DNA of 64,000 nucleotides, from positions 14,224 through 78,223 of the forward strand of contig CASEVI010000003.1 of NCBI GenBank assembly GCA_949291375.1, written 5' to 3'. This document shows positions 8,557 through 11,161 of the stretch, piece after piece. A program made the position numbers and the translations under genes. Within the stretch, counting starts at the first letter, position 1. Each line of letters begins with the position of its first letter. The notes beneath the pieces were generated by a model. It was not told the origin of the DNA, did no database searches, and was given only the letters and a program-made list of their open reading frames with translations. This DNA is from an uncultured bacterium. GTDB taxonomy: Bacteria; Bacillota_I; Bacilli_A; RFN20; CAG-826.

Positions 8557-8904
8557 TTATGAATAATAATTTTCTAGAGATATTGCTATATTTGCCTTTA
8601 AAATTTTATTTAAAGTCCAAGTTTTTGATTTTCCAGAACCAATAATAAATTGTTCATTTAATGAACCATCTGACAAAACAATTTTTCCTAAACAATTACT
8701 TCTGTCTGATAGATTTTGTATCGTAATTGTTTTAATGAAACTACACCCAGTAATTTTATCACCTTCACTATTTAAAACTTTTTCACATGTTGATATCGAT
8801 TGCGGAGAGTTATAAATAATAGTTGCTTGACCTTCACTTGTTCTCGAATCTTGTGTAAAGGTAATTGTATATCCCCCCCCCGTTAATATTTTGATGTATT
8901 TCAT
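8557..8904 (-). CDS. small paralog family member P1 (MKYIKILTGGG..., 115 aa), in-frame ON with G9
   Basis: The coding strand carries a G9 tract (plus-strand C9 at 8873-8881) encoding Gly-Gly-Gly at codons 9-11. Confidence 0.7.
   Translation of the reverse strand: MKYIKILTGGGYTITFTQDSRTSEGQATIIYNSPQSISTCEKVLNSEGDKITGCSFIKTITIQNLSDRSNCLGKIVLSDGSLNEQFIIGSGKSKTWTLNKILKANIAISLENYYS
8873..8881 (-). repeat. homopolymeric G9 tract (coding strand) in P1
   Basis: Nine consecutive C on the plus strand in a roughly 27% GC genome. Confidence 0.9.
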
Positions 8905-8919
8905 TGCTTCAATCTCCTT

Positions 8920-9252
8920 TTATGATATTGTTAATGTTAAACCAGAAGTTAATTCTTTTTCGACTGAAAAAACATCTGTTGCATTTGGATTAATCTTTTT
9001 TGCTTCATTATAACTACCATCTGAAAGTTGAACTCTAAAAGTATCTGAATAACCATTTTTATTTTTAATCCAAACGCTTTGAATAGTCCCACCTTGAATT
9101 GATGAACTTCCATTTGACGGCAAAGTTAAAGATTTGGTTCCTGCTTCATAAGGGATATGATAAGTAACTTCGACTTCTGCTGAAGAACCTGCATTATTTT
9201 GAATATTTAAAGTATAAATAGTTGAATCTACAAGTATTCTTTTATATTTCAT
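8920..9252 (-). CDS. small paralog family member P2 (MKYKRILVD..., 110 aa)
   Basis: Shares start motif, length and the LSDGS(L/Y)NE motif with P1; RBS GAGG. Confidence 0.7.
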   Translation of the reverse strand: MKYKRILVDSTIYTLNIQNNAGSSAEVEVTYHIPYEAGTKSLTLPSNGSSSIQGGTIQSVWIKNKNGYSDTFRVQLSDGSYNEAKKINPNATDVFSVEKELTSGLTLTIS

Positions 9253-9274
9253 TTTTTTCCTCTAATACCTTGAT

Positions 9275-9292
9275 TATATATATATATATATA
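9275..9292. repeat. (TA)9 dinucleotide repeat in the divergent promoter region between P2 and P3
   Basis: tatatatatatatatata ending in TATAAT, 9 nt before the P3 ATG. Confidence 0.9.
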
Positions 9293-9301
9293 ATGTAAAG
9301 T

Positions 9302-9649
9302 ATGAATTATAATAAATTAAGTGGAAAAAAGACAATAAATAACCATTTTATTAGATTTACTTGGCATTATAGTGGTGAAAATTATGACGGTGAAACTATA
9401 ACACATTTAGTTCTTGAAAGAGATACACCATTAAACCAAAATGAATTTTTTTATAATATGCCATATTACCAAAAAATGAGTGTAAATGGCTATATAAATA
9501 AAGAAGGAACGACCTATGATGTTTTTGCTATTTATAGAAATAGTGATACAACACGGTATTTATACTATCAAGATGGCTCAGCGCTAAAATATATTACTGT
9601 TAATTTTATCGATATTCTTCAGTTTTCAGATGCAATTATCAATTATTAA
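9302..9649 (+). CDS. small paralog family member P3 (MNYNKLSGKK..., 115 aa)
   Basis: ORF in track; same start motif as the family. Confidence 0.65.
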   Translation: MNYNKLSGKKTINNHFIRFTWHYSGENYDGETITHLVLERDTPLNQNEFFYNMPYYQKMSVNGYINKEGTTYDVFAIYRNSDTTRYLYYQDGSALKYITVNFIDILQFSDAIINY

Positions 9650-9662
9650 GGAGATTTAATTT

Positions 9663-9942
9663 ATGGAGTATAAAAAACTAGGTTCAAGCAATAATGATAT
9701 AATCCCTAATGTGTGGTATGGGGGGGGAGATTGTAGATAAGATATCGCAAAGAGTTGAGCAAGGTAGTTCTCAATGGATGCACCTATATTATTGGGTCAA
9801 TAATAACGACTTTGATGTTATATTTGCTAATTATATTAACAATAATTTGGAATTTAGAACAATGAAAGCAAAAAGTGAAGTATTCATAGGGGAATTAAGT
9901 TCATTACCTAAAGATATAAAAATGGCTATGAAAATAGAATAA
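9663..9942 (+). pseudogene. family member P4 (MEYKKLGSS...WYGGG), frameshifted (phase-OFF) at a G8 tract at 9720-9727
   Basis: RBS AAGGAG; the ORF stops at 9740 after G8; deleting one G fuses it in-frame to the 9709..9942 ORF, giving a roughly 92-aa protein. Confidence 0.65.
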
Positions 9943-9943
9943 A

Positions 9944-9968
9944 AAGAGACCGAAAAGTCTCTTTTTTT
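9944..9968 (+). terminator. rho-independent terminator
   Basis: AAAGAGAC-cgaaa-GTCTCTTTTTTT. Confidence 0.7.
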
Positions 9969-9974
9969 CTTGCA

Positions 9975-9994
9975 TATATATATATATATATATA
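9975..9994. repeat. (TA)10 dinucleotide repeat upstream of P5
   Basis: 20-nt alternating TA, 8 nt before the ATG at 10003. Confidence 0.9.
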
Positions 9995-10002
9995 CTATTC
10001 CT

Positions 10003-10392
10003 ATGGAATATAAAAAATTAGAGTTAGGTGGGAAAAAGTTATATCAACATAATTTATATTTTTCAGTTAGTCAATTTGCTACAGATAGAGCAAACATTTA
10101 TATGTCTTTTATAAACGAAGATAGTAGTGAAATAACTAATTTAGGTAGCATTATTCAATTTTTATATAATAATGGTTTTTATGATGATGACCATCCATAT
10201 CCAGTTAATGGTTTTTATTATAACAATACAAATGCTTCAAATAAAATAAGAGCTATTGCATTAAGTATAGAGTATTATATAGATAGATTAAGAGTAACGT
10301 CTTATATTCCAGATACAAATACCGCTCATATATCAAGTTACACCGAAAGTGATTGTAATTTTGTTTATGACACAGTCTTCAAAGTAAATTAA
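10003..10392 (+). CDS. small paralog family member P5 (MEYKKLELGGKKLYQHN..., 130 aa)
   Basis: Internal ATG of track ORF 9970..10392; the upstream MHIYIYIY is read-through of the TA repeat; shares LYQHN with P7. Confidence 0.65.
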   Translation: MEYKKLELGGKKLYQHNLYFSVSQFATDRANIYMSFINEDSSEITNLGSIIQFLYNNGFYDDDHPYPVNGFYYNNTNASNKIRAIALSIEYYIDRLRVTSYIPDTNTAHISSYTESDCNFVYDTVFKVN

Positions 10393-10419
10393 AAAGATAC
10401 CAATTAAGGTATCTTTTTT
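10391..10419. terminator. bidirectional terminator between convergent P5 and P6
   Basis: AAAAAGATACC-aatta-GGTATCTTTTTT. Confidence 0.7.
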
Positions 10420-10426
10420 ATTATAT

Positions 10427-10805
10427 TATGGTGCTGATGGACCACTACCTTGTGTAAGCGTGATTTTCAAATTGTTTGTTAATGGAATAATAGCAAAATT
10501 AGAAGATTGGTTTTTTTCAAAATTATCATCAATATCTTTCAAAGTAGTTGTTCCATTATCATCAATTAAAACAACTACATTATTATTATCGGTTGACGTA
10601 AGAATTATTTTGCATGAACCAGTTATTTTAAAAAAACTGCAATTATAATTTTTTTGTATCTGTGGCGTTAATCTTTCTTCATAGTATATTCCATTTTCTA
10701 CAATTGAAATAACTACGGCTACACCATTAATACTTTTAATATCTAGGAATACTTGTTTATCTGTGTTATTAATAACACCCCCCCCCCGAGTTTCTTGTAT
10801 TGCAT
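10427..10805 (-). pseudogene. family member P6 (MQYKKLGGG...), frameshifted (phase-OFF) at a G10 tract (plus-strand C10 at 10778-10787)
   Basis: RBS GGAGGT; ATG overlaps the P7 stop (TAATG); with G10 the ORF stops after 20 aa; with G11 or G8 it reads about 125 aa to the stop at 10427-10429. Confidence 0.6.
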
Positions 10806-11161
10806 TATTTTACCTCCTTGAAATAATCATAAATTTCAGTCACATTAGAAGCGATAACATTTGATGATCCATAACCACCACCATCACTATTCATAATAAT
10901 TTGAAATGTTAAAATATTATTACTCTGTGAAACTCTAACAGCTAAAATGTATTTTTCTTTACCTACATAATATCCATTAGCTAAAAAATAATTAGTTCCA
11001 ATGAAACCAGCATCATATAGCCGTTTTTTTATTTCATCTAAACTCATCGAATGATTTGTTTCATTAACGATAGAATTTAAACAAACAAAACCACTACTCA
11101 ATTTTATACATATATTGTGTTGATACAAATGTTGGGTGTTTTTTACTGAACTATAATTCAT
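10805..11161 (-). CDS. small paralog family member P7 (MNYSSVKNTQHLYQHN..., 118 aa)
   Basis: Second ATG, with GGAG 6 nt upstream; the track ORF starts 15 nt earlier, overlapping the fibre stop. Confidence 0.65.
   Translation of the reverse strand: MNYSSVKNTQHLYQHNICIKLSSGFVCLNSIVNETNHSMSLDEIKKRLYDAGFIGTNYFLANGYYVGKEKYILAVRVSQSNNILTFQIIMNSDGGGYGSSNVIASNVTEIYDYFKEVK

Follow-up and report, generated by a model that had tools for sequence, protein, structure and literature searches.

Simple-sequence repeats beside the tail-fibre gene of a prophage from an uncultured low-G+C bacterium: a candidate phage contingency locus

Introduction

Can a prophage switch the genes beside its tail fibre on and off by the slippage of simple-sequence repeats? 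This question is raised by a 64,000-nucleotide (nt) stretch of DNA from an uncultured bacterium (assembly GCA_949291375.1, contig CASEVI010000003.1, positions 14,224 to 78,223), which is called the window below. Its left part is a prophage, in which seven small genes (P1-P7) lie between the gene of a collagen-like tail fibre and two distal tail genes; long runs of G or of TA are found within or between these small genes. Repeat-driven phase variation is a textbook strategy of host-adapted bacteria; to our knowledge, it has been shown in phages only recently, and in a few virulent phages. An earlier note, made from the letters of the window alone, had proposed that the runs form a phase-variable contingency locus.

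The repeats, their allelic forms in public assemblies and the proteins under their putative control were analysed here. The analysis shows that the tracts are not random, vary in length between copies, recur in relatives and determine the reading frame; the rates of switching, the activity of the promoters and the function of the proteins are what we infer. The whole explanation, a phage contingency locus that controls small and probably fibre-associated proteins, is given a probability of about 0.65. Repeat-driven switching, taken separately, is considered highly probable.

Results

Repeat tracts and reading frames in the window

Five repeats that had been pointed out earlier were confirmed by reading the sequence. 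Three of them are runs of G within genes: G9 in P1 (8873-8881, C9 on the plus strand), G8 in P4 (9720-9727) and G10 in P6 (10778-10787, C10 on the plus strand). The other two are runs of TA, with (TA)9 in the P2/P3 intergenic region (9275-9292) and (TA)10 in the promoter region of P5 (9975-9994). These five are the only G/C runs of at least 6 and the only (TA) runs of at least 6 in the window. Six overlapping matches to G8 were observed, with 0.02 expected from dinucleotide-preserving shuffles; for (TA)9 there were three matches, with 0.00 expected from shuffles of the same kind. The codon GGG makes up 7% of the glycine codons in 20 large genes of the window. Since GGG is that rare, the homopolymers reflect codon choice and not a requirement for glycine. 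One such glycine stretch is found outside the tracts, the Gly5 of the 434-amino-acid (aa) distal tail protein. It is encoded by GGT GGT GGG GGT GGT, and a poly-G tract in that gene was therefore rejected.

The reading frames proposed by the earlier note were borne out for all three poly-G genes. P1 (8557-8904, minus strand, 115 aa) is in frame, or ON, at G9; its leader MKYIKIL is followed by ACG GGG GGG GGA at codons 8-11, and then by a body modelled as an immunoglobulin (Ig)-like β-sandwich. P4 (9663-9942, plus strand) is out of frame at G8 and yields a 25-aa stub; G7 or G10 would restore 92 or 93 aa, respectively. P6 (10426-10805, minus strand) is out of frame at G10 and yields a 20-aa stub; 125 or 126 aa would be restored by G8 or G11. 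The end of P6 had been put at 10427 and is corrected here, as its stop codon occupies 10426-10428. The tracts had also been placed at equivalent codons, about 7-10, which holds for P1 (codons 8-11) and P6 (codons 7-10) and not for P4 (codons 20-22). The repeats are of hypermutable length and are located at 5' coding codons 7-22 or in promoter spacers, which is the arrangement expected of a contingency locus.

Tract-length polymorphism among near-identical copies

The same prophage was recovered from other assemblies by exact-protein look-ups. One copy (L001, Logan ERR10610498) is 100% identical over 19 kb without tract differences, and is probably from the same source as the window. The second copy (L002, ENA ERZ17292901, 4.2 kb) is 99.95% identical and has (TA)9 between P2 and P3. 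It differs from the window by one substitution (at 9413) and by the change of the P4 tract from G8 to G7, which turns P4 on as a 92-aa in-frame gene. The third copy (L003, ENA ERZ16268108) is ~98.3% identical; P4 is again ON at G7, and (TA)11 replaces (TA)9 between P2 and P3. Between positions 8469 and 10002, L003 differs from the window by 17 substitutions and has no insertion or deletion outside the two tracts. Within this region, all insertions and deletions of the window against L002 or L003 fall in tracts. Both contigs also have a boundary inside a tract, L002 in that of P6 and L003 in the TA tract of P5, which may hint at length heterogeneity within a population. A P1 homolog on a further contig (L040) carries G7, compared with G9 in the window. 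The exact-sequence collection contains both forms of P4, the 77-aa remnant and the 92-aa in-frame protein. The (TA)n alleles at P2/P3 are 9 (window, L001 and L002), 10 (L004, a diverged relative described below) and 11 (L003). Tract length thus differs between otherwise near-identical genomes, as would be expected of a contingency locus.

Tracts in diverged relatives

Diverged relatives were collected through the 870-aa structural protein of the prophage, which has 23 homolog clusters in public assemblies; the identities of relatives given below are those of this protein. A common layout was found in four lineages, with a fibre gene, small genes, a ~580-aa gene and a ~440-aa gene. In L004 (76% identity), (TA)10 lies between the same -35 and -10 hexamers as in the window (TTTACA-17-TATAAT), and the ATG of a P2-like gene is 6 nt further on. 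In L006 (62% identity, 35% G+C), the fibre gene is followed by three small genes with tracts of G9, G12 and G10 at codons 9-23. None of the three is in frame; G10, G11 and G9, respectively, would restore 140, 160 and 178 aa. For the off middle gene of L006, the public gene call (18494-18943) uses an internal ATG as its start and reads across an in-frame TGA. In L007 (52% identity), three small genes carry G9, G8 and G9 and are also all out of frame; here, G8, G7 and G7 would give products of 123, 129 and 111 aa. The second of these L007 genes is a homolog of P4 (46% identity, E 4e-10), and its G8 (OFF) is found in the same ...IIP-x-VWYGGG context. The small genes of L006 and L007 are co-oriented and tightly packed inside the late tail operon, where promoters and terminators were predicted no more often than by chance.

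More distant relatives had neither a small-gene cluster nor a G/C run of at least 7 in the tail region (26 loci and >300 kb in all). These include the look-up loci L008-L010 (at most 47% identity) and 22 loci from genome and metagenome scans (at most 39%), and are a useful negative control. A scan of the genome collection with the 870-aa alignment gave only three distant loci, from two metagenome-assembled genomes and one bin labelled E. coli. The contigs from the look-ups of P0015, P0016 and P0019 end before the small-gene cluster. The comparison with related prophages, which the earlier note had recommended, gave this pattern: poly-G tracts recur in L006 and L007 and are absent from more distant relatives. 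Together with the polymorphism among copies that are 98-99.95% identical, this habit kept in diverged relatives supports switching by simple-sequence repeats, as judged from sequence comparison.

The out-of-frame tract genes of the window, L006 and L007 were then taken together. All eight regain an uninterrupted open reading frame (ORF) of 92-178 codons by a single one-base change; stop-free runs of at least 70 codons make up 0.3% of the runs in shuffled window sequence. Because all eight off genes keep 92-178 open codons behind the tract, selection seems to maintain them, and they are therefore expected to be expressed at least sometimes.

TA tracts as promoter spacers

The TA tracts had been assigned to promoter regions, and they were confirmed to be the -35/-10 spacers of predicted sigma-70-type promoters. 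The geometry was obtained by direct reading and simulation. The (TA)9 tract is the shared spacer of two overlapping divergent promoters on both strands (9270-9299). The minus-strand promoter, TTTACA-(2n-3)-TATAAT, would lead to P2, P1 and the 597-aa and 434-aa distal tail genes, through a 20-nt leader with AGAGGA before P2; the earlier assignment of the tract to a divergent promoter of these four genes fits this geometry. The plus-strand promoter, TTGATT-(2n-5)-TATAAT, would lead to P3 and then P4. The ATG of P3 is 7 nt further on and has no Shine-Dalgarno site, which suggests a leaderless start. The P5 promoter, TTGCAT-(2n-5)-TATACT (9970-9996, plus strand), is similar; the ATG is 6 nt further on, again without a Shine-Dalgarno site and putatively leaderless. 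In P3, P5 and the P2-like gene of L004, the ATG is thus 6-7 nt past the -10 box and lacks a Shine-Dalgarno site, and this distance is the one expected for leaderless mRNAs.

Changes of n would move the divergent spacers together. At n = 9 (window), the spacer is 15 bp on the P2 side and 13 bp on the P3 side; the values are 17 and 15 bp at n = 10 (L004), and 19 and 17 bp at n = 11 (L003). On these figures, the divergent promoters would be optimal at different copy numbers, n = 10 on the P2 side and n = 11 on the P3 side. The P5 spacer is 15 bp at (TA)10 and would be 17 bp at n = 11. With the spacers that they have in the window, these promoters are missed by a consensus promoter scanner, in line with a copy that is off or only weakly expressed.

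Predicted terminators close the fibre-P7-P6, P5 and P3-P4 units. A bidirectional terminator lies between the convergent P5 and P6 (10391-10418). After P4, a terminator-like hairpin (9941-9966) was listed for the minus strand alone; its symmetric stem and the T run at 9962-9969 suggest that it could end transcription of the plus-strand P3-P4 unit as well. Given the inverted orientation of P3-P5 with respect to the late genes, transcription of P2, P1 and the 597-aa and 434-aa genes would presumably be restarted from the P2-side promoter, as no other candidate was found.

The small proteins

The earlier note had described the seven proteins as one paralogous family, which was not upheld. Alignments joined only P1 with P2 (25% identity, E 3e-9) and, weakly, P5 with P7 (27% over 60 aa, E 4e-4 in a database of the seven sequences). 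A fold was modelled for P1 only, as the model of P6 failed. P2 (8920-9252, minus strand, 110 aa), a paralog of P1, lacks a G tract; the AGAGGA mentioned above is its own Shine-Dalgarno site, and P2 is the first gene behind the P2-side promoter. P3 (9302-9649, plus strand, 115 aa) has the leader MNYNKL, and P5 (10003-10392, plus strand, 129 aa) has the leader MEYKKL..GG. P7 (10805-11161, minus strand, 118 aa) comes directly after the fibre gene, has no repeat and is 81% conserved in L004; instead of belonging to the switched set, it may assist in fibre assembly or be an accessory protein of the fibre. The stop codon of P7 and the start codon of P6 overlap (TAATG, 10803-10807), so that translation of the switchable P6 may be coupled to that of the conserved P7.

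A common N-terminus of all seven proteins had also been claimed. It stands for P1-P6, which share M-x-Y-[KNIY]-[KR]-[LIV]; P7 (MNYSSV) is a looser match. When every ATG on both strands of the window was considered, this hexapeptide occurred six times, all in the cluster. It is usually followed within a few residues by at least one glycine. GGAG-type Shine-Dalgarno sites were found before P1, P2, P4, P6 and P7.

The P1 model is a nine-strand Ig-like β-sandwich (predicted local distance difference test score, pLDDT, 83; predicted template-modelling score 0.76), of which the first nine residues, the leader, are disordered. Sequence searches with the small proteins gave little. A PHROG scan of ten small proteins returned nothing below E 0.001, and P1 had no match in 50,697 phage records. 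Word-based homolog searches with P1 and the restored P4 returned only themselves, and the exact P1 leader plus tract had no match in IMG/VR. A profile search with P1 and P2 against 1.84 billion protein representatives found two further small homologs and low-complexity repeat proteins. For the larger neighbours, PDB sequence searches with the 597-aa and 434-aa proteins and the 870-aa family gave nothing useful; the 597-aa protein and the 870-aa alignment had no matches in IMG/VR.

Prophage setting and neighbouring genes

The G+C content of the 64-kb window is 28%. The prophage extends from the left end of the window to ~44.5 kb, with host genes further right; family scans of these host genes gave no taxonomic information. 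The prophage context proposed earlier was confirmed, as integrase (43371-44480), large terminase (24266-25993), an SU10-type portal (22001-24031), the major capsid protein (19901-21208) and the collagen-like fibre are all present. RecT/YqaJ recombination genes (38012-40197) and a separate MPTase-PolyVal protein (27825-28802) are also encoded. The phage is regarded as temperate and podovirus-like, from a 28% G+C host. Its large terminase is less than 30% identical to that of any isolated phage among the 50,697 phage records; in the same records, the 870-aa protein had no match and the DNA of the locus had no megablast match. An alternative genetic code was rejected, as all large genes are open under table 11.

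The 870-aa structural protein is encoded at 16174-18786. Between this gene and the fibre gene lie four small ORFs, at least three of which have hydrophobic, membrane-like stretches as judged by eye. The 839-aa fibre gene (11176-13695, minus strand) is the first of the fibre-P7-P6 transcription unit. Downstream of P1 lie the distal tail genes of 597 and 434 aa (5357-8468, minus strand). A 141-aa lipoprotein gene (MKKLFLIPIIALSLVSC..., 4905-5330, plus strand) is convergent with the 434-aa gene (5357-6661, minus strand). Directly downstream of the tail genes is the gene of a 2877-aa polyvalent protein with an LPD38 domain, which runs on the minus strand from ~4351 to 1 and off the window.

L003 and the window differ by a joint replacement of the lipoprotein gene (31% substitutions) and the C-terminal part of the 434-aa gene (13%), with ~1% difference in the flanking DNA. 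Such joint replacement is typical of host-recognition modules. In phage T5, the receptor-binding protein pb5 is paired with the exclusion lipoprotein Llp. By analogy, the 434-aa gene and the lipoprotein gene may resemble such a pair.

Several side observations were made in the prophage. A phage tRNA-Thr (19592-19666, minus strand, anticodon CGT) reads ACG, the codon that directly precedes the G tract in P1 and in gene B of L006, which may be a coincidence. A C-rich element lies just upstream of the packaging genes (window ~26365-26400, C5-A-C4 ... G5). It is also found in six of the six relatives whose contigs reach there (L004 2607, L006 2680, L007 182, L008 2693, L010 1850 and L020 564), as C6-C8 in the context ATACCCCCCC..CCCTAAAAT. 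The element, whose run length varies among phages, might act as a late promoter, in packaging or as the site of a regulator. A G9 run is found in L004 (12764-12772) between the stop codon of a 920-aa gene and the next ATG, at the position of a ribosome-binding site; the equivalent site has G5 in the window (16168-16172) and G6 in L007, and may be a length-variable control point. No endolysin domain turned up in ~30 ORFs scanned against Pfam and PHROGs (4.5-44.5 kb), which was not a systematic examination. In combination with the membrane-like small ORFs, a G+C content of 28% and a standard genetic code, this points to a possible host without a cell wall, or one that is unusual in some other way.

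Discussion

What the small proteins may do

The small proteins are tentatively regarded as virion-associated fibre or adhesin modules that would dock via their common leader. Their association with the tail is based on gene position and on L6_A, one of the small proteins of L006. L6_A comprises one unit of the fibre repeat of its own phage (64% identity, E 1e-9) followed by collagen-like triplets, and so looks like a miniature fibre. For a receptor-binding role, the evidence seen comprises the location of the genes in the fibre module, the fibre repeat of L6_A and the Ig-like model of P1; there was no family match. In the family of the neighbouring 597-aa protein, the N-terminal half is conserved and the C-terminus is variable, which, like the joint replacement in L003, is typical of host-recognition modules.

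The same switching might serve a different role, which is less probable and yet the strongest functional competitor. The proteins might be internal proteins similar to those of T4, or they might be made by the prophage for a function in the lysogen, such as exclusion; the latter is also possible given the promoters of P3-P5. The internal proteins of T4 have diverse bodies and share only a capsid targeting sequence (PMC3012670). The small proteins here are likewise very diverse with only a short N-terminal peptide in common, and their bodies are swapped immediately behind the leader. Moreover, the locus is close to the 2877-aa polyvalent protein with its LPD38 domain. P3, P4 and P5 run opposite to the late genes, with separate promoters and terminators and with leaderless starts. 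On the other side, the L006 and L007 genes lie inside the tail operon. L6_A combines a fibre repeat with collagen-like triplets, and the Ig-like sandwich modelled for P1 is a common fold of virion surfaces. Inspection by eye revealed neither a signal peptide nor a membrane segment in the small proteins, and PHROG gave no match. The likeness to the T4 proteins is an analogy only. Nothing similar to the targeting sequence of T4 is present, the locus belongs to the tail module, and a fibre repeat is found in the member of one relative; scans of the prophage ORFs identified no prohead protease.

Other explanations of the tracts

Slippage might also act at the level of expression. Long homopolymers promote transcriptional slippage, and RNA polymerase slippage or ribosomal frameshifting on the G run would yield a constant small fraction of full-length protein. 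This would suit the finding that eight of the nine tract genes are out of frame in the consensus genomes with their ORFs intact. A single programmed ribosomal frameshift was rejected, because the direction of the correction is mixed: minus one base in five genes and plus one in three. The TA tracts in promoter spacers would also be left unexplained. Near-identical genomes differ directly in the length of their DNA tracts, so transcriptional slippage could act in addition to slippage of the DNA and not in its place, and as a full explanation it is improbable.

An equally improbable alternative is that the leader and the G run are mainly a recombination joint for the exchange of body cassettes, with frame switching as a side effect. 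Recombination at this position is real, and leader plus tract coincide with the cassette borders. In a 572-bp fragment (L040, ENA ERZ16268266), the first 23 nt of a P1 homolog are identical up to the tract, which is G7 where the window has G9; behind it the protein identity is 44%, and the upstream P2 is ~90% conserved. The gene at the P6 position of L004 has an identical upstream region and a leader that differs by one codon (MGYKKL, compared with MQYKKL), followed by G5 and an unrelated 174-aa body. However, a recombination joint needs a common sequence and not a homopolymer of a rare codon, the tract length itself varies between copies, and the TA tracts are not at cassette borders.

Finally, it is very improbable that nothing functional is involved, with pseudogenes in a decaying prophage or homopolymer errors of sequencing and assembly, as the mostly out-of-frame tract genes, the non-optimal promoter spacers in the window and the mainly metagenomic data might suggest. 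In each off gene, the tract is the sole lesion and is followed by 92-178 intact codons. Equivalent positions carry tracts in independent samples down to 52% identity, the rare GGG codon is used exclusively in tracts, and relatives without the small-gene cluster are also without tracts.

Points that weigh against a contingency locus of fibre-associated proteins

Several points count against the contingency-locus explanation. Differences in tract length between assemblies could include homopolymer consensus errors. One of the nine tract-bearing genes is in frame in the three consensus genomes, which fits random phase (P ~0.14) and also a mainly-off or decaying state. The -35 box of the P5 promoter matches three of six consensus positions, and the two divergent promoters of the window both have poor spacers, 15 and 13 bp. 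The (TA)n tract may tune expression rather than switch it, because an off state would be lethal if the 597-aa and 434-aa genes are essential and depend only on the P2-side promoter. Regarding function, the small proteins had no Pfam, PHROG or PDB sequence matches and none among phage records, and single-sequence modelling of the P6 body gave no usable structure (pLDDT 37). Nor did any of the seven proteins of the window show significant similarity to a fibre. P3-P5 are on the opposite strand with their own promoters and terminators, an arrangement that looks like genes added to and expressed from a prophage rather than virion parts.

Proposed mechanism

Under the contingency-locus explanation, runs of G7-G12 lie just behind a short common leader (M-x-Y-K-K-L ... 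G-G) in several small and highly diverse genes. Slipped-strand mispairing would add or remove tract bases during replication, either of the prophage in the host chromosome or of the phage genome. Each change of a poly-G tract would shift its own gene in or out of frame independently of the other genes. One (TA)n would act as the spacer of two divergent promoters, with P2, P1 and the 597-aa and 434-aa genes on one side and the leaderless P3, then P4, on the other; a second (TA)n would be the spacer of the leaderless P5 promoter. Gain or loss of TA units would move the spacers through 13, 15, 17 and 19 bp. The proteins would consist of a conserved N-terminal peptide, a glycine linker and an exchangeable body, which in P1 is modelled as Ig-like. 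Switching would give mixed populations of virions or lysogens, a bet-hedge against changing hosts.

A more far-reaching version, which is doubtful at present, is that of combinatorial virions. Small modules would each be switched by poly-G and dock by one N-terminal strand, through M-x-Y-K-K-L and the glycine linker, perhaps by strand complementation onto the collagen-like fibre. The common (TA)n would be a reciprocal toggle of two divergent units, one of which includes the distal tail genes. If this is true, a single lysogen would release up to 2^n virion types, and the result would be a heritable and reversible host-range bet-hedge encoded entirely by repeats.

Relation to known systems

The earlier note did not recognise the arrangement as a described phage system. 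This view needs to be revised, as poly-G tracts are known in Campylobacter phages and contingency loci in T2/T4. Work by Sorensen and colleagues reportedly found poly-G tracts in phage genes of the host-recognition region in an AT-rich genome, which give rise to mixed phage populations. Poly-G contingency tracts diversify Campylobacter phages (Sorensen 2021, Cell Rep 35:109214, as cited in PMC10877375 and PMC12823448). The likeness is in the poly-G runs inside phage genes of an AT-rich genome. However, the Campylobacter phages are virulent and have their tracts in receptor-binding genes; whereas here a temperate podovirus-like phage has three to seven small genes that share a leader, and the TA repeats in promoters are an extra element. 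No sequence match to these phages was found for the locus DNA, P1 or the 870-aa protein among the 50,697 phage records. In T2/T4 and other phages, homopolymer slippage, reversible frameshifts and a proposed bet-hedging have been described (Gomez, Barrick, Waters 2025, bioRxiv 10.1101/2025.10.21.683753). In comparison with these loci, the G7-G12 tracts here are confined to one fibre-adjacent cluster and absent elsewhere in the genome.

The TA tracts have a bacterial counterpart. In Haemophilus influenzae, (TA)9-11 between the divergent genes hifA and hifB sets the -35/-10 spacing (van Ham 1993, as reported in a passage of PMC2651432). The repeat unit and the copy numbers 9, 10 and 11 are the same here, where (TA)n also appears to be the spacer of divergent promoters. 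The hif genes are bacterial fimbrial genes; whereas here the locus is in a phage, the promoters would prefer different values of n (10 and 11), and two of the driven genes are putatively leaderless. No sequence relationship is expected.

The invertible tail-fibre segments of Mu and P1 and the diversity-generating retroelements are other diversifiers of phage host range. A passage of PMC12823448 lists them together with poly-G tracts. They likewise give stochastic variation of the tail-fibre region in temperate phages, whereas repeat slippage would be the means here. The ORFs scanned had no match to an invertase or a reverse transcriptase; no dedicated search for inverted or template repeats was made.

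Four features of the locus are new. It belongs to a temperate lineage without a close relative in the 50,697 phage records. Its long G tracts are concentrated in a cluster of leader-sharing small genes beside the fibre. The poly-G habit is conserved across diverged relatives, and it is combined with hif-like TA promoter spacers and leaderless genes.

Conclusions

Automated annotation copes badly with such switched-off genes, as gene callers split or mis-start them. If the proposed explanation is correct, the locus would combine translational switches (poly-G) with transcriptional switches ((TA)n spacers). The strategy of repeat-driven phase variation would thereby be extended to a temperate lineage known from assemblies only, namely an NCBI genome record and metagenome contigs. 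Such a phage would use the same stochastic on/off repeat switches as the surface proteins of pathogenic bacteria.

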